A stretch of DNA of 64,000 nt from Planctomycetota bacterium (GCA_021776925.1 JAJFFB010000084.1:10365-74364); one strand, 5' to 3'. Positions 3,299 through 64,000 are shown, counted from the stretch's first letter. Made by a program: numbers and translations. The notes: generated by a model not told the origin, from the sequence alone.

Positions 3299-3318
3299 TG
3301 TCCTTCAGCTTGAATGGG

Positions 3319-6090: not shown

Positions 6091-6147
6091 GGAATGGTGC
6101 CGATCATAGCGTCATTCCGCGCCGTGGGCACGGTGCGCAAGGCTCGG

Positions 6148-7155: not shown

Positions 7156-7194
7156 CGTAACCCCAAAATGGAGGATCTGGTGTCTAATGGAATC

Positions 7195-22151: not shown

Positions 22152-25100
22152 CCGCGACCCTGCTGCACGACGAAGGCGCGCGTCGGCTCGGGCGCAGCTC
22201 CTTCGACCGCCCGTTGGTGCTCGAGGCCGGCGCCGGCACCGGCAAGACCGCGGTGCTGGTCGCCCGCATCGTGCACTGGTGCCTGGGGCCCGGCTGGAAT
22301 CGCCACGCCGAGCTGGAAGACGGCGAAGCCATCGCCGCGCGCGTGTGCGAACGCGTGGTCGCGATCACCTTCACCGACGCGGCCGCGGTCGAAATGCAGT
22401 CACGGGTGGCGCGCGCTCTGACCGATCTGCACCGCGGCAAGGAGCCGCTCGGCCTGGGCACCGACGACCTCGAGGTCAGCGGCGTCGAGCTCGAGCGACG
22501 CACGCGCCTGCTCCTGACCACTATCGACCGACTGCGCATCAGCACCATTCACAGCTTCTGCGCATCGATCCTGCGCGAAAACGCCCTGGTCCTCGGCCTG
22601 CACCCGCGCTTCGAAATCGATCGCGACAGGGTCATGCTCGAAGCGCTTGTCTTCGACCATTTCGGGCGTCAGCTGCCGGCCTTGTACGGAGTAGACGCCG
22701 ACCAAGACGCGGTCGCCCTCGCCGCTCTCGGTTACGGACCTCCAGAAATCGCCCGCGTGCTGCAGCGCGCCGCCGCCAGCCCACGGCGTGCCGCGCTGCT
22801 GCCGTCAGAGCCATACCCGCAAGCCGAGGTCGCGGCGTTCTGCACCGGCTTCCGCGCCGAAGTAGAGCGCGTCCGCACCACGCTGGTCGCTGCCATCGAG
22901 TGCCATGGTGCGATCCGCAATAACAACAACAAGGTGATGTTCGATCTCTGCGCCGGCCTGGCGCAACTTGAAGAGGCGCTGAACGGTGCGCCCGATCTGG
23001 AGACCTTGTGTCCGCTATTCCAGCAAGGCGGCGTCGCGCATGGCTGGCGCTCGAGCGGATCGCGCCTCGCCAAATGGGCCGGATCGGTCTACACCGGCAC
23101 CGAAGCGGACATCCTGGGCGAAGAAGGGTGCACCGCTCTGACCGCATCCTGCGTAGCGCTGATGCCCATGATCCGGGCCGCCGCAGCCGCCGATCCGGCA
23201 ACCCTGCCCGCGGTCTGCCGCCTGGTGAACAAGATCCTGCCGGGGGTGCTGCAGGAAATGCGCCGCCAGGGACTGATGACCTTCGACGCTCTGCTCGAGG
23301 AAGCGCGCGCGCTGGTCGAAGAACATCCACAGATCAGCAAGCGGCTGCGCGGCGGCATGGACCAGCTGCTGGTCGACGAATTTCAGGACACCGACCCCAA
23401 TCAGTGCGCTCTGCTTCAGCAGCTCGCCAGCGGCGACAACGCCCCCGGCCTGTTCCTGGTCGGCGACCCCAAGCAGTCGATCTATGGCTGGCGCCGCGCC
23501 GATCTGCGCGCCTATCACGACTTCGTGCAGTCCCTGATCGACCGTGGCGGCGAGCGTCACCACCTCGACGTCAACTTCCGTTCGGTTCCCGCGATCCTGA
23601 CAGAAGTCGAGAGCGTGATCGCACCGGTCATGCATGAGAGCCCCGGCATGCAGCCGGCCTTCCAGGCTCTGCATGCGGCGCCCCACAACGCCGACGCCAG
23701 CGGATACCAGCACGCCGGACGCGAGGCGGTCGAGTACTGGATCTCCTGGCAGCGCGGCGATCCCACCGCGCCGGTCAAGACCGGCGCGGAAACGCGCGCC
23801 GACCGCGCGCGCGAGATCGAAGCGGCGGCAGTCGCCGAAGACCTGGCCGACCTGCACGCGCGCGGCGCGCTTGAGTGGCACGACGCCGCCATCCTGATGC
23901 GCACCACCGGCGCCCAGGAGATGTACCTGCGTGCACTGCGGGCCGCCGGGGTGCCCTATCAGGTCGAGGGCAATCGCAGTTACTACCGCCGGCGCGAAGT
24001 CATCGATGCCGCCTGCCTGGTGCGCACCGTGGTCGATCCCAATGACCACCTGGCGCTGGTCGCCTTCCTGCGCTCGCCGGTGGTCGGCGTGCCCGACGCG
24101 GCGTGGCTGCCACTGTGGCGCGGCCACCTGCCCGGGCTGATGACCAAGCTGCAGGGGCCGCGCGACCACGAAATCCTTGAGCAGATCGCCCGCCTCGCTG
24201 AGCAGGTAGTCGAGGAACTGAGCAGCGCTGACGGTGTTCCCGGACTGGAGCGCATCGCTGGCTGGCAGCACTCTTTCGTCCACGCTGTGCGCGTGGTCGC
24301 CGAACTCAGGCAGTCCTTCCGCGTCGACCCGGCCGACCGTTTCGTGCGCCGCCTGCGTCAGGGTCTGCTCAGCGAAGCGACCGAAGCCGCGCGCTTTCCC
24401 GGCCCGCACCGCCTCGCCAATCTCGAAGGGTTTTTCCGCGTGCTGCTGCAGTCCCTCGGCAGCGCCGACGGCGGCCCGCAAGCGGTGCTGCGCGCCTTGC
24501 GCAGGGCGGTACAGGAACAAGAAGACAAACCGGACGAAGCACCGGGAGAAGAGAGCGTCGACGCGGTGCGGGTGATGAGCGTGCACAAGGCCAAGGGCCT
24601 CGACTTCGCCCACGTCTACCTGGTCGGCACCCACTCCGGTGGACGCTCCTCGGGCTTACCGGAGATCGATTTCGAGGAGAGCGACCACGGTCTTGAGTGC
24701 TGCATATTGGGTGCGGCCACGCTTGGCTATGGCATGGTCCTGGACTACCGCCGCCAGGTTGCCGAGTGCGAGCAGGTGCGTTTGCTCTACGTGGCCCTGA
24801 CTCGGCCGCAACAGCGCCTGGTGATCACTGGCAAGCAGGCGACCTCCCCCGGACCGCCGACGGCCGCGGCCGGCAATCTCGCCGGTCTGATGCAGCACCG
24901 TCTGCCCGCGGCGTTGTTGAGCTGGTTCCATGAGCACCCCGACGAGGCGGTGGCCGAGCGCGACGAAAACGGGGTGCTGTGGCGCATTCCGCTGCCCGCC
25001 GCGGATCAAGAAGGCCGCACCGATCGCAGTCACCCGCGCCTTGACCTGGCAAGATTGCAGCACGGGATGTCGGTCCTCGCTGGCGCGCGCGTGCGCGCCG

Positions 25101-25816
25101 CCGAACGCCAGCAACGGCGCTTCAAGGCGGTGGCGAGCGCCGCCGCGGCGCACTCCGCCGCTCCTCAGCCGTCGGCCGCCGACCACTCCGAAACCCACGA
25201 GGCGGCACGCGAACGCCGTCACCACACCGCCGCCGACCCCGAATTGGAATGGCGACTGCATCGAGGTGATCGCGAGATGTCCCTGGCGGTTGGCAGCCTG
25301 GTGCACCTGGCCCTGGAGCGGATCGATCTGGACCTCGACCTGGTCAACGCTTTGCAACAGGCCCACGCGCGGCTGCCCCAATGGGGGGGGGCGCTGCTCA
25401 GCGCCAGCGGACTTGCGGCGCCGCGCAGCGAACGAGCGATCGAAGCCGCGCGCCGCCTGCTGGCGCGGATAGACGCCAACGGCATCTTGCCCGAACTCTT
25501 CGAACGCCGTCAGCAGGTGCTCGGCCGCGAGGTCCCGATGCTGCTGCCGGGCGGGGCCGTCAGCGGACCCAGCGGAGTCGTCATCGGCACCCTCGACCTG
25601 CTCTATCGCGACCCGGCCTCGGGCCAGTTGGTGGTCGCCGACTACAAGACCGACCAGGTCGAGGATCAAGCCGACATCCAACGGCTGTGCGCGCATTACG
25701 AAGCGCAGGGGCGCCTCTATCTCGAGGCGGTCGCGCGCGCATTTCCTGATGAAGAGCCGCCGCGCTTCGAGTTGTGGTTCCTGGCCGCAGGCCAGATCAC
25801 CCCTCTGCGCATCTAG
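22148..25816 (+). CDS. addA: AddA/UvrD-type ATP-dependent helicase-nuclease subunit
   Basis: GTG 22148 overlaps the addB stop. Walker A is LEAGAGTGKTAVL. DEFQDTDPNQ and VMSVHKAKGLDF are UvrD motifs. The C-terminal RecB-type nuclease motif is LDLLYRD....VVADYKTD. Confidence 0.85.
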   Translation: MTATLLHDEGARRLGRSSFDRPLVLEAGAGTGKTAVLVARIVHWCLGPGWNRHAELEDGEAIAARVCERVVAITFTDAAAVEMQSRVARALTDLHRGKEPLGLGTDDLEVSGVELERRTRLLLTTIDRLRISTIHSFCASILRENALVLGLHPRFEIDRDRVMLEALVFDHFGRQLPALYGVDADQDAVALAALGYGPPEIARVLQRAAASPRRAALLPSEPYPQAEVAAFCTGFRAEVERVRTTLVAAIECHGAIRNNNNKVMFDLCAGLAQLEEALNGAPDLETLCPLFQQGGVAHGWRSSGSRLAKWAGSVYTGTEADILGEEGCTALTASCVALMPMIRAAAAADPATLPAVCRLVNKILPGVLQEMRRQGLMTFDALLEEARALVEEHPQISKRLRGGMDQLLVDEFQDTDPNQCALLQQLASGDNAPGLFLVGDPKQSIYGWRRADLRAYHDFVQSLIDRGGERHHLDVNFRSVPAILTEVESVIAPVMHESPGMQPAFQALHAAPHNADASGYQHAGREAVEYWISWQRGDPTAPVKTGAETRADRAREIEAAAVAEDLADLHARGALEWHDAAILMRTTGAQEMYLRALRAAGVPYQVEGNRSYYRRREVIDAACLVRTVVDPNDHLALVAFLRSPVVGVPDAAWLPLWRGHLPGLMTKLQGPRDHEILEQIARLAEQVVEELSSADGVPGLERIAGWQHSFVHAVRVVAELRQSFRVDPADRFVRRLRQGLLSEATEAARFPGPHRLANLEGFFRVLLQSLGSADGGPQAVLRALRRAVQEQEDKPDEAPGEESVDAVRVMSVHKAKGLDFAHVYLVGTHSGGRSSGLPEIDFEESDHGLECCILGAATLGYGMVLDYRRQVAECEQVRLLYVALTRPQQRLVITGKQATSPGPPTAAAGNLAGLMQHRLPAALLSWFHEHPDEAVAERDENGVLWRIPLPAADQEGRTDRSHPRLDLARLQHGMSVLAGARVRAAERQQRRFKAVASAAAAHSAAPQPSAADHSETHEAARERRHHTAADPELEWRLHRGDREMSLAVGSLVHLALERIDLDLDLVNALQQAHARLPQWGGALLSASGLAAPRSERAIEAARRLLARIDANGILPELFERRQQVLGREVPMLLPGGAVSGPSGVVIGTLDLLYRDPASGQLVVADYKTDQVEDQADIQRLCAHYEAQGRLYLEAVARAFPDEEPPRFELWFLAAGQITPLRI

Positions 25817-39667: not shown

Positions 39668-42091
39668 TTGCACCGTCGAGTCCTGCCCGCGCTGCTGGCG
39701 GCATTGATCTGTGCCGCGTTGTCGTGGGCGGTGCGCGAAGCCGCGGCGCAGCGTTTCGCCGGTGCACCCGGAACCGCACACGCCGGAAGCTGGTTCAGCG
39801 CCGAGCCCGACGGCCTCTATCACCTGCGCCGGGTCGAGCGCACCTTCCAAGAAGGCTGGCCGGTTGCCGCGCGCGACGCCCACCTCAACGCTCCGCATGG
39901 CGCCGCCATTCCGTGGCCGCCTTATTACGACACGGTGCTGGCCCTGCTCAGTTCGGCGGGTGCTCCCAGCGAGGAAGCCGCACGCCGCGCCTATCTGGAG
40001 CGCTTCCTGGCCACCTTGCCGATGCTTTTCGGCATCCTCACCAGTGCGCTGGCGGCGCTGCTCGCCTACTTCCTGACCCGGCGGCACCGATTCGCCGCCG
40101 CGCTGGCCGCCGGCGCCGGCCACGCCGCCAGTTTTGCCGCGGCGCAATACGCAGCTCCCGGCAGCGCCGATCATCACGCCTGGGTCAGTCTCGTCACCCT
40201 GAGCCTGTTCGGCGTGTTGTCACTGGGTCTGCGCCACGGCGCGATGTGGCGTGCGCGCCCGGCGAGGATCACGGGCATTCTCGGCGGCGCTCTGGCCGGG
40301 GTCCTGATCGGGTCGTGGGTCGCAGGACTGGTGGCCCTGGTGCTGATCCAGCTCGTCTTCGGCTGGTTATTGCTGTGGCAGCGGAAGACCCCGCGCCCGG
40401 CGCTGGCCCAACTCGGCGTGACCTTCCATCTGACCGCCGCTGTGGTCTTGCTCCCCGCAGTGTGGGCCAGCCCCTGGCGGCTCGAGCATCCGTGGATGGT
40501 GGTCAACCTGTCCTGGTTCCACCTGCTGGAACTCGGCCTCGGCGCGCTGGTCTTTGTGCCGCTCCGCCGCGATCCAAGCGGCGGGCGCTGGCACCCGCTG
40601 CTGCTGCCGGGCCTGATTCTGGCCCTTGGGGGGGGGCTGGTCGCCGCGGGCATCGGACCGGGAGCTGGCATCCGCGCCAGCTTCGAATGGGTCTCGCGCG
40701 CGGACTCCTTCATGTCCGGCATCGCCGAATCGGAACCGCTCTGGGGTGGCGATACCACCGGCAGCGGCGGAGCTTTGCGCTGGCTGGGGTATGGACTGCT
40801 GCTCGCTCCTCTGGCGTGGGCCTGGATCGTGGTGCAGGCCTTTTGGAAAGGGCGCAGCCAGCACCTGATCTGGGCGATCGCCCTGCCGGTCGTAGTGATG
40901 CAAGCCCTCGGTCAACGGCGCTTCGCCGAGGCCGCGGCGGCTCCGCTGGCGCTGGTGATCGCGCTTTTCCTGGCCGAGAGCGTGCTGCCGCGCCTGCTGG
41001 CGAAGCTGCGCCTCGCTCCCGCCGAAGCGAAGCAGGCGCGCAGCCAATCTGCCAGCGGGAACGGCTCCTCGACCCCGCGGACCCTCGGCTCGGTGTTCGC
41101 CGCGGTCCTGGCTCTGGTCATCGGCGCCGGCCTGCACGGCGGCCAGGCACTCGGCGGCCTCGCCGCTTGGGGCGATCGGCCGAACAGCCGCGCCGACAAC
41201 TATCAGGCCGGCTTGCGCCAGTGCGTGGAGTGGTTGCAGCATCAACCTCAGCATGCACCGCTGGTGCTGGCTCCGTGGGATATGGGTCATCTGCTCGAGT
41301 GGGGCGCGGGCGCCCGCACCCTGGCGACCAATTTCGGCAGTTACGTGGGTGAGCAGTCTTTCCTCGCCCCGGCGCGCTTCTTCCTTCACCCGCTGACTCC
41401 CGACGGCGGCGCGGCGCAAGCCGAAGCGATGCTGGCAGCCCACCAGGTGGATTACGTCCTGCGTCCGGCGCGCCTGACCATGAGCATCGACGACATGGTG
41501 CGGCGCGTACTTCCGCAAGGAGACAATCCCTTCGTCGAAAAGCGGCCAGCGGCCAAGGGTGGGCGCAGCATCAGTCGTCTGACCCCGGCCTGGTTCGCGA
41601 CCGCGGGCGCGGCCCTGGCACTCCCGCATCCGTCTGACGCCGGCAGCGGAGTCGGCGCCTACGCCTTTGAGGGGGGGGTCTATCCACTGCCCTTCCTGCG
41701 CCTGGTCTTCCTCTCGCCGCTCGCCGACGCGGACCCGCGCCACGGCATCGATCCGCAACCGTCCGCCATGGTGTGGCAACGCGTTGCCGGCGCCCGGCTC
41801 AGCCGTGACGCGCGCAGCGGCGACAGCCTCGAAGTGGTGGTGCCGGTGCAGCTCACCTGGGAGGGCAGAGAGGTCTTCCGCTTCGAGTACGGCAACACCG
41901 TGGTCGCTGCCGCGGACGGTCCGCTGCTAGTGCGTGTGCCCTATGCCACGGGCAGCCAGGGTGCGGCCACCGCGCGGCCGGCGAGCTGGCGCCATCTGCG
42001 CGCGGGCGAGGTGCTTGCCAGCGCCCAGATCATGATTGCAGAAGCCGCGGTGATCGCTGGCGAGGTCATTTCGCTCAACCCAACGCAGTGA
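39668..42091 (+). CDS. Polytopic membrane protein resembling STT3/AglB/PglB oligosaccharyltransferases
   Basis: TTG start 2 nt after the upstream stop. The first-loop motif AEPDGLYHLRRVE (39802-39830) resembles the D-x-D..YH.R loop of AglB/STT3. More than 10 TM helices. PWDMGHLLEW (W537-H541, 41276-41290) sits where WWDYG is expected, ahead of a ~260-aa soluble C-terminal domain. Confidence 0.55.
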   Translation: MHRRVLPALLAALICAALSWAVREAAAQRFAGAPGTAHAGSWFSAEPDGLYHLRRVERTFQEGWPVAARDAHLNAPHGAAIPWPPYYDTVLALLSSAGAPSEEAARRAYLERFLATLPMLFGILTSALAALLAYFLTRRHRFAAALAAGAGHAASFAAAQYAAPGSADHHAWVSLVTLSLFGVLSLGLRHGAMWRARPARITGILGGALAGVLIGSWVAGLVALVLIQLVFGWLLLWQRKTPRPALAQLGVTFHLTAAVVLLPAVWASPWRLEHPWMVVNLSWFHLLELGLGALVFVPLRRDPSGGRWHPLLLPGLILALGGGLVAAGIGPGAGIRASFEWVSRADSFMSGIAESEPLWGGDTTGSGGALRWLGYGLLLAPLAWAWIVVQAFWKGRSQHLIWAIALPVVVMQALGQRRFAEAAAAPLALVIALFLAESVLPRLLAKLRLAPAEAKQARSQSASGNGSSTPRTLGSVFAAVLALVIGAGLHGGQALGGLAAWGDRPNSRADNYQAGLRQCVEWLQHQPQHAPLVLAPWDMGHLLEWGAGARTLATNFGSYVGEQSFLAPARFFLHPLTPDGGAAQAEAMLAAHQVDYVLRPARLTMSIDDMVRRVLPQGDNPFVEKRPAAKGGRSISRLTPAWFATAGAALALPHPSDAGSGVGAYAFEGGVYPLPFLRLVFLSPLADADPRHGIDPQPSAMVWQRVAGARLSRDARSGDSLEVVVPVQLTWEGREVFRFEYGNTVVAAADGPLLVRVPYATGSQGAATARPASWRHLRAGEVLASAQIMIAEAAVIAGEVISLNPTQ

Positions 42092-49233: not shown

Positions 49234-50037
49234 TCAGCGGTGGAAAACCAGCGCCGTAAGGCTGAGCGCGCGCACCCGCTCGGCGATCTGCTCCAGACGC
49301 TCGAGCGGCACCGCCTCGGCCTCGGCCTCGTGGCTCGGCGGCCGGTCAAGGGTGTAGATCTCGACCTGGCGGATCTGGTCCTGGAAGCGTTCGAGGTGGC
49401 GCAGCCAGGCTTCGACCTCGACCTCGCTGGCGTTGTGCGCGGTGGGGGTGCGCACGAATAGCGACTGGATGACGAAAGAGTCGAGGTGGGACAGGCCCTC
49501 GAGGGTGCGTTCGAGCCCCCCCCGTGAAACGCGGTAGAGCGCCGCAAACCCGTCCGGGGTGCCGGTTTCGAGCTTGATCGCCGCTTCGTCGTAATAAGTC
49601 TGGATGGCTTCGAGCACGTCGCCGCTGAGCAGATGCATGCCGTTGGTCAGCAGGCCGATTTTGGTACCTGGTCCGAAGTGCTCATCGCGCGCCATCGCCA
49701 GGTGGCGGCTGAGGTGCAGGAATTCAGGATGCAGCGTCGGTTCACCATTGCCGGCCACGGTGATCTGGTCGGGCACGTCCTTGTCGCGGGCCAGCCGCGC
49801 GAATTCCTCGTCGAAGGCGCGGCGCAGATCGTGGACCGTAGGCACCTCACCCTTGCCCGCAGATTGCTGCGCGCGGGTGAAACCATATTGGCAATAAAGG
49901 CAGTCGAGCGAACACACCTTTTGATCGACCGGCAGCGGGTTCACCCCCAAGCTGCGGCCGTAGCGGCGCGAGTCGACCGGACCGTAGAGCCAACCGTCCT
50001 GAAGCGCGATGGGCATCCATTCAGGGATAGCCTCCAT
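49234..50037 (-). CDS. Radical SAM protein (small, single-cluster)
   Basis: CSLDCLYCQYG (C-x3-C-x2-C) and GNGEPTLHP (GGE-like motif). 267 aa, with no SPASM-type extra Cys clusters. Confidence 0.8.
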   Translation of the reverse strand: MEAIPEWMPIALQDGWLYGPVDSRRYGRSLGVNPLPVDQKVCSLDCLYCQYGFTRAQQSAGKGEVPTVHDLRRAFDEEFARLARDKDVPDQITVAGNGEPTLHPEFLHLSRHLAMARDEHFGPGTKIGLLTNGMHLLSGDVLEAIQTYYDEAAIKLETGTPDGFAALYRVSRGGLERTLEGLSHLDSFVIQSLFVRTPTAHNASEVEVEAWLRHLERFQDQIRQVEIYTLDRPPSHEAEAEAVPLERLEQIAERVRALSLTALVFHR

Positions 50038-54783: not shown

Positions 54784-56295
54784 ATGCAGACTTCCCCCCT
54801 GGTCATGCTGGCGAGTTTCCTGTTTCCTCTGGCGCTGGCGGCGTGCCAGGTGCCGCCCGACGCCGACGGCGAGGCCGGGGTGCGGCCGCGGCCGAACATC
54901 CTGTTCATCTTTACCGATGACCACGCCTCCCATGCGATCTCCGCCTATGGCTCGCGCATCAACACCACGCCGAACTTGGATCGCATCGCTGCTGAAGGCA
55001 TGCTGTTCCGCAACGCCTTCTGCACCAATTCGATCTGCGGCCCGAGCCGTGCGGTGATCCTGACCGGCAAACACAGCCATCTCAATGGCTTCCGCACCAA
55101 TGGCGACAAGTTTGATGGCAGCCAGCAGACCGTGGCCAAGCTGCTGCAACAGGCCGGCTATCAGACCGCGATGATCGGCAAGTGGCATTTGAAGACCGAG
55201 CCGACCGGATTCGATTTCTGGCGCGTGCTGATCGGCCAGGGCCCGTACTACAACCCGATATTCAAGACGCCGGCAGGGAAGGAGAAAATCGAAGGCTACA
55301 CCACCGACGTGATCACCGACGTCGCGCTCGAATGGCTGCAGAAAGACCGCGACCCAGAGCGCCCCTTTCTGATGATGTACCAGCACAAGGCGCCGCACCG
55401 CAACTGGCAGCCGGCGCCGCGCCATCTGAATCTCTACGACGACGTTGAGATTCCAGAACCCGACACGCTGTTCGATGACTATCAGGGGCGCACCACCTTC
55501 GCCGCTGAGACCGAGATGACCCTGGCGGACCATTTCTTCCCCTTCGACGCCAAGTTCGAAGCGCCGAAAAACCTCACCGAAAGCCAACGCGCCGCGTGGG
55601 ACGCGGCCTACGACCCCAAGAACGAAAAGTTCTTCGCCGCCCGCGACTCGATGAGCAAGGACGAGATCACGCGCTGGCGCTATCAGCGTTACATCAAGGA
55701 CTACCTGCGCTGCATCAAGGCGGTCGATGAAAACGTCGGGCGCGTGCTCGAGTATCTTGAGGAAAGCGGCCTCGCCGACAACACCGTGGTCATCTACAGC
55801 AGCGACCAGGGCTTCTATCTCGGCGACCACGGCTGGTACGACAAGCGCTGGATGTACGAGGAATCACTGCGCATGCCGTTGATCGTGCGCTGGCCCGGCC
55901 AGGTCGAAGCCGGTGCCGTCGATGAACACCTGGTGCAGAACCTCGACTACGCTGAGACTTTTCTGGATCTGGCTCAGGCCGAAATTCCTGACGACATGCA
56001 AGGACGGAGTTTTCTGCCGTTGATGCTCGGGCAGGACGTGCCCTGGCGCCCGTCGATCTATTACCGCTACTTCGAGTACCCGCAGCCGCACCGCGTGCCG
56101 CCGCACTACGGCGTGCGCACCCAGCGGCACAAGCTCATCTACTATCCGCTGCGCGAGGAATGGGAACTGTTCGACCTGGTCCAGGACCCGGATGAATTAC
56201 GCAGCGTTTACTCGGATCCTGCCAACGCCGATCTTGTTCAGGAGCTCAAGAACGAATTGAATCGATTGCGCGAGCTGTATCAAGATGTGGATTGA
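54784..56295 (+). CDS. Cys-type sulfatase (arylsulfatase / N-acetylglucosamine-6-sulfatase-like) lipoprotein
   Basis: Lipobox [17 protein letters not shown] and [17 protein letters not shown] (the C-x-P-S-R formylglycine motif), then MIGKWHL and [15 protein letters not shown]. Confidence 0.9.
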
Positions 56296-56304
56296 TTGTT
56301 CTCT

Positions 56305-56383
56305 CGCCCGGGCCGCGCTCCACTGGGGCTAAAGCGGCGGCGCAACGCCGCCGAAGTCGCCCCAGCGAAGCGCGGCCCGGGCG
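56305..56383 (+). terminator. 79-nt compound hairpin immediately after the sulfatase stop
   Basis: The outer arms cgcccgggccgcgctccactggggc (56305-56329) and gccccagcgaagcgcggcccgggcg (56359-56383) pair at 23 of 25 positions by hand. The apical part contains a second perfect 8-bp stem, cggcggcg-caa-cgccgccg. There is no T-run directly after it, so a terminator role is only a guess. Confidence 0.45.
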
Positions 56384-56418
56384 GAAGCGACGTCATTCTT
56401 AATGAGGGTTTCTTCAGG
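56359..56418 (+). repeat. Direct repeat copy 1 (~60 nt), upstream of the lectin-sigma-kinase operon
   Basis: gccccagcgaagcgcggcccgggcggaagcgacgtcattcttaatgagggtttcttcagg. Its 5-prime half is the 3-prime arm of the compound hairpin. Confidence 0.7.
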
Positions 56419-56492
56419 ATTGGGCCTGTGTTTTGGGTCACAGGACGACCGCTGGGGCCTTGTAATGGGGAAACCCTAATCCTGGAGTTCTC

Positions 56493-58403
56493 ATGTTGTC
56501 CGCGGTTGTTCTTGCACTTTTTTCTCCCATTCAGGGGCCCCCAGCCGGTTACAACTGGGTTCAGAACCCAGATAATGGTCATTACTATGCGCTGACCAAT
56601 AGCAAAATCCGCTGGACCGAAGCGGAAGCGGAAGCAGCTTCAATTGGTAGCCATCTGGCTACTGTCAGGAATCTGAGCGAACATCAGTGGATTGAAGCGA
56701 ACTTGATATTCCAATCGAGTTGGATTGGATATTCCGATGCAAATGTCGAGGGTGAGTGGGAGTGGATTAGCGGCGAAGTGTTCTCATGGTGGCAGGATAA
56801 TGGGCACTTCGGCGCGGATGGCTCACCAGGCTATTGGAGTCCAGGGGAGCCGAATGACCAGGGCAACGAGGATTACGCGGTGATCAGGGGGGATGGATGG
56901 AATGACCTCCCGAATGATGGCTGGAGTGGGGATCCTATGAGATTCGGCGTCTTGGAGTGGGTCGGATTGGACAGTGACGGGGACGGGCTGCTGGACTCGG
57001 AGGAAGACCTGGATGGTGACGGCGTGGTGGATGCTGGAGAGACCGATCCATTTGATCAGGATACGGATGATGATGGTCTTGGGGATGGCGAGGAGTTTTC
57101 GCCAGTCAGGAATTGGATCCAAAACCCGGTGACTGGGAACTGGTATCGCTTGACCTCGGAGCCGAAGACTTGGACCGATGCTGAGGCGGAGGCCATTTCC
57201 TTGGGCGGGCATCTGGTTGGGTTGGAGAACCTGGTTGAGAATGACTGGGTGTTCAATACTTTCGGCGGCTTTGGCGAATTCCTCTGGATTGGTGTCAATG
57301 ACGTGCAGCAGGAAGGAGATTGGGTTTGGGCGAACGGCGAGTCCAGCTCCTGGTGGGCTCAGAATGGGTACTTCGGAGCCCAGGGTGAGCCGGGGTACTG
57401 GGCGGCTGGAAACCAGCCTCTGAACTACGACGATGGCTTCGATTATGGATATATGGACGGCCAAACAGTTGGCTGGCCATCCATGTGGGGTGCGGTGCTC
57501 AATGACACAGGGGTGCCGGGTCGGCTGTTTCAGGGTGTCATCGAAGTCGGACGAGTGCCGATGACCGATCCGTTGGCGGTCGACAGCGACGGCGATGGCG
57601 TGCAGGATGGGACCGAATCGGGGCTCGATCAGATCCGTTGGTTCGGCGATCCGGGAAATGGGATTGCGGGGACCGACCCTGCCATTTTCGTGGCCGATCA
57701 GGACCCTCAGACTACGACCAGCCCACTGGACATGGACTCAGATGAGGACGGGCTCGCCGATGGCGTTGAAGACCTGAATGCGGATGGTGCGCAGGGGATA
57801 TTGGAAACCGATCCATCGGCGTTGGACTCCGATGGAGATGGAATCCAGGATGGCACCGAGCTTGGCTTGGTCGTGGGGACTGCGGACACGGATCTGGACG
57901 TTTTCCTGGCAGATGCTGATCCTGCGACCACCACCAACCCCCTGGCGGTGGATACCGATGGGGGTGGAGTGAGCGACGGAGAAGAGGATCAGAATCTAGA
58001 TGGCGCATTCGACAGCTGGGATACCGATCCGCTGCTGGCCGCCGATGATGAACTCGCCTTCTATGTCTACAATCTGATTCCTGGGGAGCGGGTCAGGTAC
58101 AAGGTGTTTCAAGCGAAGCCATTCATCAACGTCATTCCGGTGTATTCCCTGGTGGGGGCTGGACCGACCAGCATCGGGCTTGGGGTGGTGCTTGATTTGT
58201 CCATGCCCATTCATCAGTTGGATGGATTTAGAACCGATGGGAACGGTTTCGGAGATGCGGCGGCGTGGGGTGCAGGCGGCAATGTGCCGGATTCGGCGCC
58301 TCCGGGGATGCCGGTCTACTTTCAGGCGGTCGAAGTCCCGACGCGGCCGGGTGAAACGGTACGCGTGTCCAATGCCCTGGTGGTGCCGGTGGGAGCCAAC
58401 TGA
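56493..58403 (+). CDS. Secreted protein with two C-type-lectin-like domains, thrombospondin type-3-like Ca-binding Asp-rich repeats and a C-terminal beta module
   Basis: GGAG lies 8 nt upstream of the ATG. CTLD 1 is WTEAEAEAASIGSHLATV...WIGYSD...GEWEWISGE...GEPND (EPN 56847-56855)...NEDYAVI...GWNDLPND (WND 56898-56906). CTLD 2 is degenerate (QPL). Repeats are of the DSDGDGLLDSEEDLDGDGVVDAGETDP type. No cysteine occurs anywhere in the 636 aa. Confidence 0.8.
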   Translation: MLSAVVLALFSPIQGPPAGYNWVQNPDNGHYYALTNSKIRWTEAEAEAASIGSHLATVRNLSEHQWIEANLIFQSSWIGYSDANVEGEWEWISGEVFSWWQDNGHFGADGSPGYWSPGEPNDQGNEDYAVIRGDGWNDLPNDGWSGDPMRFGVLEWVGLDSDGDGLLDSEEDLDGDGVVDAGETDPFDQDTDDDGLGDGEEFSPVRNWIQNPVTGNWYRLTSEPKTWTDAEAEAISLGGHLVGLENLVENDWVFNTFGGFGEFLWIGVNDVQQEGDWVWANGESSSWWAQNGYFGAQGEPGYWAAGNQPLNYDDGFDYGYMDGQTVGWPSMWGAVLNDTGVPGRLFQGVIEVGRVPMTDPLAVDSDGDGVQDGTESGLDQIRWFGDPGNGIAGTDPAIFVADQDPQTTTSPLDMDSDEDGLADGVEDLNADGAQGILETDPSALDSDGDGIQDGTELGLVVGTADTDLDVFLADADPATTTNPLAVDTDGGGVSDGEEDQNLDGAFDSWDTDPLLAADDELAFYVYNLIPGERVRYKVFQAKPFINVIPVYSLVGAGPTSIGLGVVLDLSMPIHQLDGFRTDGNGFGDAAAWGAGGNVPDSAPPGMPVYFQAVEVPTRPGETVRVSNALVVPVGAN

Positions 58404-58404
58404 C

Positions 58405-59127
58405 ATGAACGAGTCTGATCCGGTGCAGCAGGCGGTGGCGGGATTTCGGTCGCGCCTGGTGATCCTCGCCGACCGCCATCTCGGCAGCCGTGCACTGGAA
58501 GTCATCGAAGCCTCCGATCTTCAGGTTGCTCTTCAGACGCAGGCAAGCGGCCAGGACGACTTGGATTCATTGCTGGCGCAGGTCTTTGAGGGTGCGGAAG
58601 GAGACCCTGAGCTGCGTGCGGAGTTCTTTGCGTTCTTCTGGGATCGCATGCCGACGGGTGGGTCCACCAGCCGGTATCCGATCCTGCGCCGGTTTCTGGA
58701 CAGTGGCGACCTTTTGGCAAGCGCCTTTGGCGACATGATGGAAGGTCTCAGTCGATTGGAGTTCCGTGGCCGCCATTCCTTCCAGGCCATGTTGGTGCAG
58801 CGGATGAAATGGAAGACCTATTCCCAATTACGCAGAGCCAACCGCGACACTCCAGTTCTTGGCAGTTCGGGGCCCGAATTTGTAGACGGGAATCAAGCCA
58901 GCGACCCAGCAACGGCTTATGAGGATTCCGAGGCCAACAGCGAAATCATTTCCGCGATCGCATCCTTGCGGCCTCGGGAGCGGTCCTTGATTCGCCTATT
59001 CCTGAACGGTGCGACCGGCCAGGAAATGGCTCTTGAGGTCGGAATGAGGCCGGCCGCGTCGCGCAAAGCCCTGCAACGAGCCTTGACAGGGCTGCGTGCC
59101 ATTCTTATCAATGCAGATCGTGGGTGA
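58405..59127 (+). CDS. ECF-type sigma-70 family factor
   Basis: ATG 58405 lies 1 nt after the lectin stop (TGAcATG). The N-terminus RLVILADRHLGSRALEVIEASDLQ resembles the PF07638-type ECF region 2. Region 4 HTH is LRPRERSLIRLFLNGATGQEMALEVGMRPAASRKALQRALTGLRAIL. Confidence 0.7.
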   Translation: MNESDPVQQAVAGFRSRLVILADRHLGSRALEVIEASDLQVALQTQASGQDDLDSLLAQVFEGAEGDPELRAEFFAFFWDRMPTGGSTSRYPILRRFLDSGDLLASAFGDMMEGLSRLEFRGRHSFQAMLVQRMKWKTYSQLRRANRDTPVLGSSGPEFVDGNQASDPATAYEDSEANSEIISAIASLRPRERSLIRLFLNGATGQEMALEVGMRPAASRKALQRALTGLRAILINADRG

Positions 59128-61270
59128 CTCGATTGATCCTGATGCGACGGCCGGTGGCGAGGAGTACTTTCAGGATTACGTGCAATTATTGCGTACTGGA
59201 GACGCTCCTGGCCTCGAAGAATTCCTGGCCGGCCTTCCGCCTGATGCGCGCCCGGCAACAAGGCTGAAGATCAGCGAATTCGAGGAGATCTGGCGTACCT
59301 TCCATCAAGCCAGTCACGCACTCAAGGCCGGGCGGTCCTTCGGCCATTACCTTTTGGTCCGAGAGCTTGGACGTGGCGGTTTCAGCACGGTGTGGGAAGC
59401 CGAAGACCGCAATTTGCATCGCCAGGTTGCCCTCAAGATCTTGCACCTGGCGTTCAGCTTGGATGACCGAGCCGAGATCCGGCTGCAGCGCGAGGCGGAG
59501 GCGCTGGCACGGATGCACCACCCGGGCATCCTCAAGGTCTATGGCCTGTACCGGATCGAGGGTCAGCTCGCCCTTGCGGTCGAATTGGTTGAGGGAGGGC
59601 AATCCCTGCTCGACGAGATCTCGCAACGGGCGCCGGACGCTCTCGGGCCGTTTCGGGTGCGCCAAATGGCCCAGCGCTTCGCAGTCGTTGCCGAGGCACT
59701 GGAAGAAGCGCACCAATCCGGCATCCTGCATCGTGACATCAAGCCATCGAATCTTCTCTTGACCAAGGATGGGGGCTTGAAGCTGGCCGACTTCGGCCTC
59801 GCCATGTTGGAGGGGAATAGCGACGAGCTCACCCGGACCACAGAATCCATCGGTACCGTCCCGTATGTGCCACCCGAACCCTTGGCGGGCAGGGGCTTCA
59901 GTCCGCAGACCGATGTCTGGTCGCTCGGGGTCACTTTATTTGAGTCTTTATGCGGGAGCCGCCCCTTCCAGGGGCAAACCGCGCACGATGTTCGCACCAG
60001 GATTCTGAACTCCGAACCCCAGTGGCCGCGAAGCGCACGGAAACTGCCAGCGGACTTACGGGCAATTTGCTCCATGGCCCTGGCCAAGAATCCGCATGAT
60101 CGCTATGCGAGCATGCAGGCGATGGCGACCGACCTCCGAAACTGGTTGGATGGGCATCCAGTGGTTGCGCGTAGGGCCAGCCTCTCCCGACAAGCCGTGG
60201 CTTGGGTCAGACGCAACGTTCCTGCGGTCGTCCTCGTGGTCAGCGTGATGGTGGTCGCAGGTGTCCTTGCCGCTCTGCTCAAGCAGTCGGTCCAGAATGA
60301 AAGGCGCGCCAAGGAATCGGTGCGCATCATGAGCCAGATGCTGACCCCGCTGGATCCAGCAGCCCTGGACAGGTCTGGTGCCCGCATGCTGGAACTGGCT
60401 GACCAGGCCCACGATTTCGCCAATGAGGAGCTGGTGGGTCAGCCTGCCGAACGCGCGCGACTCCTGAAGGCAGTCGGCGGAGCCAGGATGTACCTGGAAG
60501 ATTTTGCCCAGGCCGAGGTCTCCTACCGAAACAGCTACGCAATTCAACCCGATGAAGAGACCTTGGTCAGGATTGCCTGGTGCCTGGGGCAACTGGAAAA
60601 AGTGGAAGAGGCAGCGCGCATCCTGGAGCCCATCGCCAACAGGCCTCTCCATGGAGATCTTCACCGGGATTCCCTGACCCTATTGGCACGCAACCGGCTG
60701 GGCGGGGTGGAATTGGGAGTCGGCGATGCCAAGTCGGTGGAAAATGCGCGCAAGCGATTCGAGGACCTTGCGCAATCCTTGCAGGGCATGCCCCAGGATC
60801 TTCCATTCCTGCGCTGCCTCAACCTGCTCAATCTGGCCACTTCCCATTATCAATCCAGGGATTTCGAGTTGGCTCTGGCCGGTTTCAAGAAAGCCAGAGG
60901 AGCCTTCTATGACTCAGGCCTGTTTTCCCACCCTGACGTTTTCTTCACCTACGTAGGCGAGCACCATGTCTTGAAAATGAAAGGTGACCTGGACCATTCT
61001 GTGGAAGCCCTGCTCAACGGACTCGACCACCGTCGCGAGCACCATGGTCCCTTCATGATGAACACCCTGCGCGCCCAGCTCACCATCGCCCGAGACCTGT
61101 TTGCGTGCGGCAGACAGGAAGAGGCCCGGACACTCTTCCTTGATTACCGGTCCAAGTTTCCCAATCGGATTGGATCCTATGCTTTGCGCCAACAGAAGGA
61201 CATCTGGACTGATCTAGCGGCCCAACTTGGAGAACCAGGCGCCCTGCCCGGACTGACCACGGAACCCTGA
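59111..61270 (+). CDS. Ser/Thr protein kinase (Hanks type) with one TM helix and a C-terminal TPR-like sensor domain
   Basis: ATG 59111 overlaps the sigma gene end by 17 nt. Kinase motifs are LGRGGFSTVWEA, VALKIL, HRDIKPSNLLL, DFGLA, GTVPYVPPE and DVWSLGVTLFE. The TM helix is VPAVVLVVSVMVVAGVLAALL, followed by about 330 aa that are helical-repeat-like. Confidence 0.9.
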   Translation: MQIVGDSIDPDATAGGEEYFQDYVQLLRTGDAPGLEEFLAGLPPDARPATRLKISEFEEIWRTFHQASHALKAGRSFGHYLLVRELGRGGFSTVWEAEDRNLHRQVALKILHLAFSLDDRAEIRLQREAEALARMHHPGILKVYGLYRIEGQLALAVELVEGGQSLLDEISQRAPDALGPFRVRQMAQRFAVVAEALEEAHQSGILHRDIKPSNLLLTKDGGLKLADFGLAMLEGNSDELTRTTESIGTVPYVPPEPLAGRGFSPQTDVWSLGVTLFESLCGSRPFQGQTAHDVRTRILNSEPQWPRSARKLPADLRAICSMALAKNPHDRYASMQAMATDLRNWLDGHPVVARRASLSRQAVAWVRRNVPAVVLVVSVMVVAGVLAALLKQSVQNERRAKESVRIMSQMLTPLDPAALDRSGARMLELADQAHDFANEELVGQPAERARLLKAVGGARMYLEDFAQAEVSYRNSYAIQPDEETLVRIAWCLGQLEKVEEAARILEPIANRPLHGDLHRDSLTLLARNRLGGVELGVGDAKSVENARKRFEDLAQSLQGMPQDLPFLRCLNLLNLATSHYQSRDFELALAGFKKARGAFYDSGLFSHPDVFFTYVGEHHVLKMKGDLDHSVEALLNGLDHRREHHGPFMMNTLRAQLTIARDLFACGRQEEARTLFLDYRSKFPNRIGSYALRQQKDIWTDLAAQLGEPGALPGLTTEP

Positions 61271-61303
61271 CGCCGCTTGATCGATCTCCTGCCCGGCCGG
61301 GGC

Positions 61304-62989
61304 TCAGGAATCCAGGATGGGTTGCAGCTCGGCTGGGGGGATCTTGATATGGATGAGTTGACCTGGGGCCGGTTTTTGGATGGTGAAGGGTTGGCCGACG
61401 GATATTGGCCAACTTCCGAATGGGGAAAGCCAGAGTTGGCATTGGGTCCCGGAAAAGAAACGGTATTGGGGCCAGCTATGGGACCCGGTGAGGAAAGAGG
61501 CTGGGTCTTCGATCGGGCCTTTTTCTTCGGTGAGGAGTCCGCCCATTTCCAGTGGGAGCCCGGAAGTGTTTTCCAGAACGTAGCCGGCGTAGAAGCAGTC
61601 TGGTTTTAGGGTGGCAATCACGGAGATCGGAGGGGCTACGTTTCCCGTGACTTGGATATTGGAGAGAGTTTCGATCTGAGGTCCTTTGCCGAACTTCTGG
61701 TTCCACGTGTCCACGGAGGTGGAAAGGTCATAGAACCCTGGGGGAATAAAGAACAGGAATCCTGGTTTTCCGTCTGCCCGTCGGCGGCCTTGCCGATCAA
61801 GGTACTCGGTTTGGGATTGATGTTGATTCCAACGGACATTCAGGGAATCGGGAATCACTCCGGAGACAAAGTGGGCGGTTGGTTCGAGGTGTACCACCAC
61901 CGGCACGAGTTCTTTGGGCCAATCGCCGGGGAAGCGCTGGATGGTCAGCGTAGGGTCCATGATGTGCTTTAATTCGACGACCATGGTCTCAGGGTCCACC
62001 AGGTTGTCTGGATGGATCCGGGTGATCCTGTAGGACGATTCCGTCCACTCCTTTTCCGTTATGAGCTGCCAATCCACCTTTTCGAATTCGGGATCGAAAT
62101 CGGCTTCCGATTCAATGACTTCCAGGCGGCTGGTGTAGTCCGGCGTCCTGAACGGAAATGAGGTTTGTGTGGTTGGATTCACTTCGTGTCCGGAGCAACC
62201 CCAGAATTCGCGCATGTCTTCGACGACGCCGTAGGCAAGCAACCTTCCGAGTTGGAGGTCGAACGAGGTAGGGCCAGAATCCTGGAAAGTGACCTTGGCA
62301 TGGGTCTGCCCATATCCCTCGGCACGTGCAATCAGGCGGATGCATTGAGCGCCGTAGATGCGGCCCCGCCAAGTCCCATGTTCATCAACCGACCGGCGCT
62401 GCTTGGTCGGGCTGAGGGCGCCGAAGACCTGCAGCCGGGCTGTGGGAATGGGGTCGCCTCTGAAGTCCGTGACCGTCACGATCACGTCGTTCCAACCACC
62501 CAGATCCAGAACGAGCACGCGGCCAATCTCATCTCGGTCGGAAACCGTTGCTCGTTCCACTCGGGTGGGGAAGCCGTTATCTGGCAAAAACCACGCAGAA
62601 AAAACGGGGGTCAGGAGATGGCTCCACTGAGTCTCTTCCACCAAGCATTTCCCGGCTTCTACGGAAACGGTCTGGGGCTCTTGCAATTCTCCCTTGGTAA
62701 TGGCGTCGGCTTGCTCCAACACCGCAAAGCGGAGCCTTCCGTTGGCTTCTACGACTGTTCCAGAGGCGTGGATCTCTACGTTCCAGGCGGATTGTGCAGG
62801 CGTGGATACCAGGTCCCGACCAGAGGCCTTCTGTGCCTCAGACTCAGCAATAAGGCTTTGCCGGGGGAGGTCAATTTGAACCTTATCCTCCTTAGGCGGA
62901 GGAGAAGCCTTTTGAAATGCCCAGAAGACGGCCAAAAGGGCGAGAACCAAGAGAAATGCAAAGCCTCGAATGGAGGGAGTATTAGGCAT
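61304..62989 (-). CDS. Membrane-anchored hypothetical protein (561 aa), beta-rich ectodomain
   Basis: Preferred start is ATG 62989 (MPNTPSIRGFAFLLVLALLAVFWAF anchor). It has a carboxypeptidase-regulatory-like strand pattern, VIVTVTDFRGDPIPTARLQVFG. I recognise no family. G+C is lower than in most of the window. Confidence 0.6.
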   Translation of the reverse strand: MPNTPSIRGFAFLLVLALLAVFWAFQKASPPPKEDKVQIDLPRQSLIAESEAQKASGRDLVSTPAQSAWNVEIHASGTVVEANGRLRFAVLEQADAITKGELQEPQTVSVEAGKCLVEETQWSHLLTPVFSAWFLPDNGFPTRVERATVSDRDEIGRVLVLDLGGWNDVIVTVTDFRGDPIPTARLQVFGALSPTKQRRSVDEHGTWRGRIYGAQCIRLIARAEGYGQTHAKVTFQDSGPTSFDLQLGRLLAYGVVEDMREFWGCSGHEVNPTTQTSFPFRTPDYTSRLEVIESEADFDPEFEKVDWQLITEKEWTESSYRITRIHPDNLVDPETMVVELKHIMDPTLTIQRFPGDWPKELVPVVVHLEPTAHFVSGVIPDSLNVRWNQHQSQTEYLDRQGRRRADGKPGFLFFIPPGFYDLSTSVDTWNQKFGKGPQIETLSNIQVTGNVAPPISVIATLKPDCFYAGYVLENTSGLPLEMGGLLTEEKGPIEDPASFLTGSHSWPQYRFFSGTQCQLWLSPFGSWPISVGQPFTIQKPAPGQLIHIKIPPAELQPILDS

Positions 62990-63077
62990 GGTCGGACCCC
63001 AGCCTCGATAGAAAAGGCATGGCAGCAGGTAGCATGATTTTCCGACCAACGAGGCCCAAAGGACCGCAAGGCCTGAC

Positions 63078-63135
63078 GCCCCAGCGAAGCCCGGTCAGGG
63101 CGGAGGCAACGTCATTCTTCTTGAGGGAGTTCAGG
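63078..63135 (+). repeat. Direct repeat copy 2 (~58 nt), immediately upstream of the beta-lactamase-family gene
   Basis: gccccagcgaagcccggtcagggcggaggcaacgtcattcttcttgagggagttcagg. 43 of the first 50 positions are identical to copy 1 by hand alignment, in the same orientation. Confidence 0.7.
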
Positions 63136-63140
63136 TTAAT

Positions 63141-64000
63141 ATGGAAGCAATGCTTTTGATTGCCTTTTTATTGAGCGCGTTCGCGCAGTCTGTGGGGTCA
63201 CCAGGCATCGGTCCGCAGCAGGTTCTTGACCGGGTGGCGGGAGAGAACCTGGGTTATGGCGGGGCCGTGTTCCGCGCTGCGCAGGGGCCGGACCTGTTGT
63301 GGCAAGGAGCGTCGGGAAGCCTGACGCGCAACGGAGCGGCGATGACCAGCGAGGCGGTTTTTGAAATCGCCAGCACTTCCAAGGCGATGACTGCCGCCGC
63401 AGTGCTGTTGGAAGTGGAAGCCGGCCGCCTCGACCTCGACGCCCCTCTCAGCAACTACCTTGCGCCCGCCTTCACCGACAAGCTGCTCGTCATCGGCGGC
63501 CACAATTACGGCCCCGAACTCACCCTGCGCCAGCTCTTGTCCCACACCTCGGGCCTGCCCGATTATTGGTACGACCCGCCCTTCATCGTTCCCGGCTTGA
63601 CTCCGCTGTTCGTTCCCGGAAGCGGCTGGCACTACTCCGATTCCGGTTACCTTCTCGCCGGCCTGGTGCTGGAAAAGGTCACCGGCCTGCCCTTGCAGGA
63701 AATCTACCGCACCCGCATCTACCAGCCGCTCGGCATGCACCAGACCTGGCTCCAGTGGCGCGAGAACCCACCCCCCGGCGCCACCCAATCCCATCGCTAC
63801 GAAGGCGATTGGGACATGTACACCAAAGGCCACAACAGCGCCGACTGGGCCGGCGGCGGTCTCGGCAGCACCACCTACGACCTGCACCTCTTCCTGCGCG
63901 GCATCGCCGACGGCACCCTCTTCGCCAACCCCGCCACCCGCGACCAGATGATGGCCTGGACCCCAACCGGCGACCCCGGCGTCCACTACGGCCTCGGCCT
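63141..64000 (+). CDS. Serine hydrolase, beta-lactamase (class C / esterase EstB-like) family; C-terminus beyond the window
   Basis: Hand translation gives MEAMLLIAFLLSAFAQS (signal)...AVFEIASTSKAMTAAAVLLEVEAGRLDLDAPL (S-x-x-K), LLSHTSGLPDY and HYSDSGYLLAG (Y-x-N-like position). It is absent from the track because it has no stop in the window. The 63198..63986 minus-strand ORF is its antisense shadow. Confidence 0.8.
   Translation, partial: MEAMLLIAFLLSAFAQSVGSPGIGPQQVLDRVAGENLGYGGAVFRAAQGPDLLWQGASGSLTRNGAAMTSEAVFEIASTSKAMTAAAVLLEVEAGRLDLDAPLSNYLAPAFTDKLLVIGGHNYGPELTLRQLLSHTSGLPDYWYDPPFIVPGLTPLFVPGSGWHYSDSGYLLAGLVLEKVTGLPLQEIYRTRIYQPLGMHQTWLQWRENPPPGATQSHRYEGDWDMYTKGHNSADWAGGGLGSTTYDLHLFLRGIADGTLFANPATRDQMMAWTPTGDPGVHYGLG

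Follow-up and report, generated by a model that had tools for sequence, protein, structure and literature searches.

How did a block of four genes, set apart from its surroundings by base composition and bracketed by two copies of one short sequence, come to lie in a planctomycete-like bacterium with a sulfatase gene on one side and a gene of the beta-lactamase family on the other? The block (positions 56296-63140) is part of a 64,000-nucleotide stretch of DNA from Planctomycetota bacterium (GCA_021776925.1, JAJFFB010000084.1:10365-74364), all of which was analyzed and which is referred to here as the window. By examining the repeat and the hairpins around it, the composition of the enclosed genes, and the contexts in which their homologs are found, we tentatively hypothesize that the 6.7-kb stretch enclosed by the repeat copies is a genomic islet, inserted long ago into the short spacer between the sulfatase and beta-lactamase-family genes and no longer mobile, a reading that we consider plausible while stopping short of calling it probable.

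The repeat copies and the hairpins associated with them are as follows.

Direct repeat copy 1: 56358..56408, plus strand; 26 nt of the outer 3' arm of hairpin A followed by a 25-nt tail, GGAAGCGACGTCATTCTTAATGAGGG, ending GAGGG.
Direct repeat copy 2: 63077..63127, plus strand; arm and tail (44/51), without the remaining hairpin.
Hairpin A: 56305..56383, no strand assigned; no hairpin in the window is larger than this 79-nt near-perfect palindrome, whose 38-nt arms are 84% complementary.
Hairpin B: approximately 64179-64265 (L017:1-90), past the window end, inverted relative to hairpin A; about 60 nt beyond the stop codon of the beta-lactamase-family gene.

A repeat search of the 64-kb window identified the bracketing sequence as a 51-nt ungapped direct repeat, the two copies of which are identical at 44 positions (86%). 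The original prediction, made from the sequence alone, had described a same-orientation repeat identical at 43 of 50 positions; with 56359 and 63078 taken as the origin, there are 43 matches in the first 50 aligned positions, which reproduces that count exactly. The repeat is also unique in the window: the second-best match of copy 1 to any 51-mer reaches 28/51, blastn of the copy pair inside the window gives E = 1.6e-7, and the sub-motif ACGTCATTCTTNNTGAGGG occurs twice in the window against 0.03 occurrences expected. Its edges are sharp, as similarity in the 62 nt on either side of the 51-nt unit is no better than in shuffles, and extending the repeat upstream or downstream yielded nothing significant. 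Neither elsewhere in the window nor in the 3 kb to its left were further copies of the repeat or of the hairpin core found. That the motif might be a common genome-wide element was thus not borne out across about 67 kb of the source genome, a result that speaks for that stretch only.

The position of the repeat relative to the hairpin is informative. Hairpin A is predicted to fold as RNA with a free energy of -81 kcal/mol (z = -7.4), and contains an inner stem-loop, CGGCGGCG-CAA-CGCCGCCG, at 56335-56353. Copy 1 runs from its outer 3' arm into the tail, which lies outside the hairpin and whose terminal GAGGG has no start codon behind it; at copy 2 the same end is the ribosome-binding site of the beta-lactamase-family gene, with GAGGGAG 11 nt ahead of the ATG. 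The copy 2 region is unfolded in the RNA prediction (z = +1.2), and alignment against shuffles detected no remnant of the hairpin 5' arm or of the inner hairpin upstream of it. The seven differences between the copies fall at 56372, 56376, 56378, 56386, 56389, 56401 and 56402, and at the three of these located in the arm, copy 1 has the version that pairs with the 5' arm of hairpin A. Since the repeat crosses the hairpin boundary and copy 2 lacks the other half of the hairpin, the copies appear to descend from one specific site; and as the 51-nt unit spans a junction between hairpin and non-hairpin sequence, it points to a locus-specific duplication rather than to two independent palindrome insertions. 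As a separate observation, CGCTGGGGC (56450-56458, in the lectin leader) is the reverse complement of GCCCCAGCG, which lies at the start of the repeat (56359-56367), and could serve as an alternative pairing partner for the hairpin 5' arm, perhaps downstream of the predicted transcription start (near 56447-56450).

A duplicated site can also arise without any insertion. Both copies have the same orientation and lie upstream of plus-strand genes, and the identical positions within the 51 nt form blocks of 14, 7, 11 and 6 nt, as would suit a duplicated cis-element (a promoter, an operator or a 5' leader) of two plus-strand transcription units; the segment would then be native, fast-evolving accessory DNA, and its low G+C content at third codon positions (GC3) would be the mark of a gene class (surface and signaling proteins, weakly expressed). 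We consider this explanation unlikely, albeit one that deserves serious weight. The distance from the repeat to the start codon is very unequal, 85 nt for copy 1 and 14 nt for copy 2; the first 26 nt of copy 1 are locked in the hairpin, whereas copy 2 is unstructured; and a conserved promoter-like element of the extracytoplasmic function (ECF) type, described below, lies outside the repeat. No Rfam family matches at its gathering score either (the matches of hairpin A at E < 1 are all far below the gathering scores of their families). The 51-nt repeat was also considered as an ECF promoter in its own right and rejected: by our own reading the GAAGC-to-CGTC spacing is about 3 nt above the ECF norm, and the conserved motif is downstream of the repeat.

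Hairpin B was recovered by extending the right end of the window with a Logan contig (L017, run SRR15505519) that is identical to 56480-64000 (7521 nt), continues for 265 nt beyond it, and ends inside the hairpin; a second Logan contig from SRR15505519 extends the left end by 3 kb. (Contig ends at 56480 and within hairpin B raised the idea of strain heterogeneity at the islet border; this was rejected, as another contig of the same run stops mid-gene.) The two hairpins have in common an exact 21-nt core, CGGCGGCGCAACGCCGCCGAA (written CGGCGGCGCAACGCCGCCG as a search pattern), in opposite orientation, and the outer arm of B is weakly similar to that of A (alignment score 45, against a shuffle maximum of 34), while B has no counterpart of the 25-nt tail. 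Two full hairpins and one half copy lie within 8 kb. Together, A and B indicate a small hairpin repeat family, which resembles repetitive extragenic palindromic (REP) sequences in its placement after stop codons, in either orientation.

The existence of such a family raises the question of whether the two repeat copies are simply two members, one of them truncated, of a dispersed palindrome family of the REP type or the type of miniature inverted-repeat transposable elements (MITEs), with their position at the ends of the block being coincidental or reflecting a preference for intergenic spacers. Hairpin B, with its exact but inverted core, shows the behavior of elements that insert either way, and there is no T-run behind the long hairpin A, so that it is not a canonical intrinsic terminator. 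Against this, 25 nt of the repeated unit lie past the hairpin and have no equivalent in hairpin B, copy 2 is missing both the 5' arm and the inner hairpin, and no more copies of the core or the repeat occur in the other ~60 kb that were read of the source genome. Scans with GCCCCAGYGRAGCN{10,30}ACGTCATTC of 185,579 species genomes and of the JGI metagenomes (the source genome not being included) returned 4 and 8 matches, respectively, all due to chance, with wrong spacing and no similarity beyond the seeded bases; a scan of viral contigs for the hairpin core gave one chance match, inside a coding region. It is also improbable that elements landing by chance would occupy exactly the two spacers, of about 38, that bound the block. 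Taken together, we judge a dispersed-element origin of the two copies improbable.

The segment between the repeat copies is filled by four genes, with spacers of 197, 33 and 151 nt.

Cargo gene 1: 56493..58403, plus strand; a secreted protein with two C-type lectin domains (Lectin_C, E = 3.8e-14) and Asp-rich repeats like those of thrombospondin type 3 (TSP3); GC3 0.64.
Cargo gene 2: 58405..59127, plus strand; an ECF-type sigma factor of 240 aa (240 aa in L017 as well); GC3 0.66.
Cargo gene 3: 59096..61270, plus strand; a Hanks-type Ser/Thr kinase (STK) with a C-terminal tetratricopeptide repeat (TPR) region (Pkinase, E = 3e-50); GC3 0.70.
Cargo gene 4: 61304..62989, minus strand; a protein with an N-terminal membrane anchor and tandem beta-sandwich domains, convergent with the kinase gene; GC3 0.64.

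The G+C content of 56296-63140 is 58.7%, compared with 64.5% in the remaining window. The shift is better resolved by GC3 than by total G+C: against the four values listed above, the other 34 genes of the window have a mean GC3 of 0.78 +/- 0.05 (Mann-Whitney p = 9.5e-5), the adjoining sulfatase and beta-lactamase-family genes have 0.81 and 0.82, and the repeat encloses precisely those four genes whose GC3 is lowest in the window. Total G+C drops already from about 54000, some 2 kb before the segment, because GC2 (the G+C content at second codon positions) is low in the sulfatase gene. The tetranucleotide correlation of the segment with the remaining window (r = 0.694) is below that of every other 6.8-kb interval (0.71-0.94), with the 64 kb of host DNA serving as the only reference for composition. 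The lower G+C claimed for the segment on the basis of three spot counts (51.7, 58.3 and 66.7%, all of them correct) is therefore a significant shift when computed in full, and it coincides with the gene boundaries beside the repeat copies.

The window is compositionally heterogeneous, with G+C in 1-kb intervals ranging from 57 to 71%, which would be in keeping with a chance similarity between the two copies coupled to ordinary gene-to-gene variation in G+C. That explanation is effectively refuted by the gap between the repeat and its next-best match, the blastn E value, the GC3 difference, and the tetranucleotide correlation.

Composition has a bearing on the cis-element scenario as well. A second low-GC3 block, comprising the genes at 527-8475 (GC3 0.67-0.71), has the tetranucleotide signature closest to that of the segment (r = 0.864), and it is made up of large membrane-anchored or secreted proteins lacking recognizable flanking repeats; low GC3 may thus mark a gene class rather than a foreign origin. 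The GC3 of the module in other genomes points the other way: the ECF and STK genes of a related locus (L018) have GC3 values of 0.87-0.88 in a contig of 66% G+C, and in another (L019) the module has 0.64-0.71, in line with its neighbors. With host-typical values in both, low GC3 is not intrinsic to the module, which in the window departs from both of the adjoining genes. As to the second block itself, it begins with two tandem 923-aa membrane-anchored proteins (527-6090) that have no Pfam match and are distant paralogs (22% identical from end to end). A 793-aa protein containing an FGE-sulfatase domain comes next, and no repeat was noticed flanking the block. The two 923-aa proteins show no relatedness to cargo gene 4.

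What kind of cargo does the segment carry? Gene 2 starts 1 nt past the lectin stop codon, and the start of gene 3 overlaps the stop of the ECF gene; the two are translationally coupled, with no anti-sigma factor gene present. The sigma factor matches Sigma70_r4_2 clearly and TIGR02937 at the borderline (43.1 bits against a cut-off of 42.9); its sigma-2 region is weak, and region 4 alone passes Pfam. The best non-self homolog of the kinase is 39% identical, and the ECF protein is 41% identical to that of L018. In all five related loci examined (L018, L019/L020, L021/L022, L025 and L026), an ECF gene lies directly upstream of a kinase gene. Two of these loci also have a full-length ortholog of the lectin/TSP3 protein: in L019 it is 43% identical over 636 aa and lies beside the ECF-STK pair and divergent from it, and in L025 the same architecture (636 aa) recurs downstream of the pair. 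The other three (L018, L021/L022 and L026) have different TSP3 or FG-GAP surface proteins beside ECF-STK.

Module loci, surface protein next to ECF-STK: L019:2539-7519; L025:487-5513; L026:146-4689; L018:202-4742; L021:1694-7124.

On the evidence of these neighborhoods, the lectin/TSP3, ECF and STK genes form a conserved functional module occurring in three gene orders, and the original description of the cargo as self-contained is supported in that these three recur together in other genomes. The recurrence of a surface protein beside ECF-STK suggests that the surface protein may be a regulon target of this kinase-controlled sigma factor. Kinase-associated ECF groups include ECF43, the planctomycetal ECF59-62, and ECF217/267/283 (PMC7826278). 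By analogy with ECF43-type systems in the same literature (PMC7826278), control of the ECF by kinase phosphorylation can be inferred: the TPR-bearing kinase would presumably activate the ECF, which has no anti-sigma factor, by phosphorylating it. PADLOC, which was also run, returned generic kinase-domain matches only.

A possible promoter for such a system was found just inside the left end of the segment.

Candidate ECF-type promoter: 56417..56443, plus strand; GGATT, 13 nt, GGGTCACAG; 58 nt ahead of the lectin ATG.

In the window, in L018 (1805-1827) and in L025 (upstream of the ECF start at 487), the first start codon of the operon follows the 10-mer TGGGTCACAG at a distance of 58-66 nt (65-66 nt in L018 and L025), and GGATT, GCAATT or GGGAT stands 13-14 nt ahead of the 10-mer. 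Of 20000 shuffles, 5 produced a 9-mer common to all three upstream regions, and in L019 and L026 there is a TGGTCTT at a similar place. We infer that the TGGGTCACAG region is the module's own autoregulated ECF-type promoter, with a candidate consensus of GGAWT, 13-14 nt, GGGTCACAG; from it, some 10-35 nt downstream of copy 1, the ECF would drive its own operon including the secreted lectin/TSP3 protein. As the promoter-like element begins 9 nt past repeat copy 1, the left junction of the cargo is tightly placed.

Gene 4 is a different kind of passenger. A word-index search found no homologs and suggested an ORFan, consistent with the "orphan" label given to this gene in the original prediction, but an exhaustive phmmer search overturned this, with 20 homologous cluster representatives, the best of them 43% identical over the full length; the gene therefore belongs to a rare family. 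An AlphaFold2 model built with the alignment (predicted local distance difference test, pLDDT, of 80.5) begins with a membrane helix at the N terminus and continues in tandem beta-sandwich domains (a single-sequence model, with a pLDDT of 36, was unusable), and the nearest solved folds in a Foldseek search of the model are the TIE protein, BcpA and other pilins, and carboxypeptidase regulatory domains. On this model, the rare family consists of membrane-anchored proteins built from beta-sandwich domains in tandem, with a fold like that of pilin or adhesin stalks. The neighborhood of one homolog, P0242, is a run of small hypothetical genes and contains no ECF, kinase or lectin genes, and gene 4 is therefore a separate passenger and not part of the module. 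P0242 lies 3.3 kb from an rve_3 transposase gene.

The genes on either side of the segment are as follows.

Left flank, sulfatase: 54784..56295, plus strand; Sulfatase and SGSH_C domains (Pfam E = 4e-56 and 1e-60); homologs cover 92-100% of it; intact.
Right flank, beta-lactamase-family serine hydrolase: 63141..64000 and on to 64178, plus strand; signal peptide; Pfam Beta-lactamase, E = 1.5e-49.

The beta-lactamase-family gene, completed by L017, encodes 345 aa and is intact. The best non-self relative of the sulfatase is 71% identical, and its homologs at 70-71% identity (P0006 and P0003) are found in unrelated contexts; because of these contexts, and because the family is too paralogous, synteny cannot be followed through the sulfatase. 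Seven sampled proteins, drawn from both flank and cargo, are all singletons at 90% identity among about 15 billion sequences, each recorded only in a single NCBI contig (84,151 nt) and some in the Logan assembly of SRR15505519 as well: this is a lineage without a sequenced close relative. The gene content of the window, with its many sulfatase-related genes, its DUF1501/DUF1800 pair and its kinase-linked ECF, points to Planctomycetota, as do the source names of several of the top sulfatase homologs.

How, then, might the present arrangement have come about? Under the insertion hypothesis, the ancestral order would have been sulfatase, hairpin A, tail, ribosome-binding site, and beta-lactamase-family gene. 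About 6.7 kb of foreign, or at least distinct, DNA would have entered at the 3' shoulder of the REP-like hairpin A, in an event that left 51 bp (outer 3' arm, tail and GAGGG) on both sides. Three mechanisms can be envisaged: site-specific recombination with an attachment (att)-like site on the incoming DNA, which would make the copies left and right attachment sites (attL/attR); Campbell-type homologous integration via shared hairpin-family sequence; or a long staggered break, opened at a cruciform and then filled in and repaired. The sulfatase-side copy would then have retained its pairing with the hairpin 5' arm and the other copy its role as ribosome-binding site, the two having since diverged at 7 of 51 positions. 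An insertion of this kind would explain four features at once: the repeat spanning a hairpin boundary, the ribosome-binding-site-like end of copy 1 with no gene behind it, the intactness of both flanking genes, and the coincidence of the compositional break with the repeat copies.

Several observations weigh against the insertion hypothesis. In profile searches no gene of the window has an integrase or transposase domain, which leaves the cargo without a recombinase; ARAGORN detected no tRNA or tmRNA in the window; and the would-be arms of a reconstructed attP contain no arm-type repeats, only chance 8-mers. The segment has no similarity to plasmid and phage records. No empty site or alternative context was found in the collections, which hold no close relative (the best sulfatase relative being the one at 71%). 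A divergence of 14% between the copies is unusual for a fresh att duplication, and means either that the event is old or that the partner sites were non-identical from the start. With at least two local members, the hairpin family may also have contributed part of the unit as a dispersed repeat, and low GC3, as noted, may reflect gene class. The attL/attR-type islet put forward originally is therefore upheld in part: the compositional break, the unique repeat and the self-contained cargo support it, whereas a recombinase and a tRNA target are wanting, as that proposal had itself recognized in seeing no integrase, transposase or tRNA. An integron cassette was considered too, and rejected: the attC core sites RYYYAAC and GTTRRRY are absent from both strands of 56296-56430 and 63040-63140, and a 6.7-kb "cassette" of four genes would be atypical.

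A more speculative version of the insertion hypothesis, which we regard as very unlikely, is that integration was directed by structure: a recombinase that is encoded elsewhere, or is of an unfamiliar kind, would recognize the shoulder of REP-like hairpins and move integrase-less modules in trans, making the segment similar to a cis-mobilizable element (CIME) or a cassette. Hairpins A and B would then be docking sites, vacant or occupied.

Three further features of the window lie apart from the segment. An AddAB-like pair at 18933-25816 (plus strand), a 1072-aa PD-(D/E)XK nuclease followed by a 1230-aa UvrD-helicase/nuclease, lies in the part of the window where G+C is highest (68-69%). The 807-aa product of a gene at 39668-42091 (plus strand) combines an STT3 N-terminal domain with the archaeal AglB_L1 domain and thus resembles an oligosaccharyltransferase, here in a bacterial genome. 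Runs of G8 or C8 occur in coding regions at 20199-20219, 1869-1876 and 49518-49525, the first of these being two G8 runs 5 nt apart inside the PD-(D/E)XK nuclease gene (18933-22151). Such runs may be prone to slippage or may be artifacts of assembly.

If the insertion hypothesis is right, the locus is a clean, small example of an uncultured planctomycete-like bacterium acquiring at one stroke, at a hairpin site and with no integrase of its own in the segment, a complete sense-and-respond unit (kinase, sigma factor and secreted lectin) together with a surface protein, and the 51-bp junction would be a defined starting point for finding the machinery responsible. Integrative elements have, to our knowledge, been little studied in Planctomycetota. 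As a finding about mobile elements the locus is ordinary and currently unverifiable; possibly more useful is the conserved lectin/TSP3-ECF-kinase module, which along with its candidate promoter offers a testable regulon for kinase-controlled ECFs.

How does the locus compare with known systems? Like a CIME, it is a compositionally distinct block between same-orientation repeats, without recombinase or transfer genes, and recombination between the repeats would restore a flank-repeat-flank site. Known CIMEs, however, derive from integrative and conjugative elements (ICEs) or integrative and mobilizable elements (IMEs) of Firmicutes, are located at the 3' ends of genes or tRNAs, and have att sites matching those of a live element, whereas the present locus occupies the shoulder of an intergenic hairpin, its repeats differ by 14%, no cognate element or integrase is known, and no room is left for decayed mobility genes. 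Compared with tRNA-linked genomic islands, which have imperfect 40-60-nt repeats, the locus has no tRNA or tmRNA and no integrase, and is very small (four genes), but it is similar in repeat size, imperfect identity, compositional deviation, and surface and signaling cargo. REP sequences and bacterial interspersed mosaic elements (BIMEs) provide a third comparison, and palindromes of this type are known targets of some insertion sequences. Hairpins A and B resemble them in being related GC-rich palindromes just after stop codons, in either orientation; they differ in that 79 nt is long for a REP, in numbering only two full copies in about 67 kb, and in the lack of a gene for a REP-associated tyrosine transposase (RAYT) in the window, and the bracketing repeat differs in consisting of half a hairpin plus unique sequence. 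Given that a recombinase and a tRNA target are absent and that the repeats are only putative att sites, the locus should be described as one that works like a decayed integrated islet rather than be filed in any named element family. The regulatory cargo is more readily placed. It differs from Ser/Thr-kinase-associated ECF systems in its weak sigma-2 region and its secreted lectin/TSP3 partner, but it resembles them in that the ECF gene adjoins a Hanks-type kinase gene, in the absence of an anti-sigma factor, and in a neighborhood conserved in five loci. We know of no earlier description of a conserved C-type-lectin/TSP3 partner of a kinase-linked ECF. The regulatory cargo belongs to the known class of kinase-associated ECF modules and extends it modestly, by the lectin/TSP3 partner and the candidate promoter.

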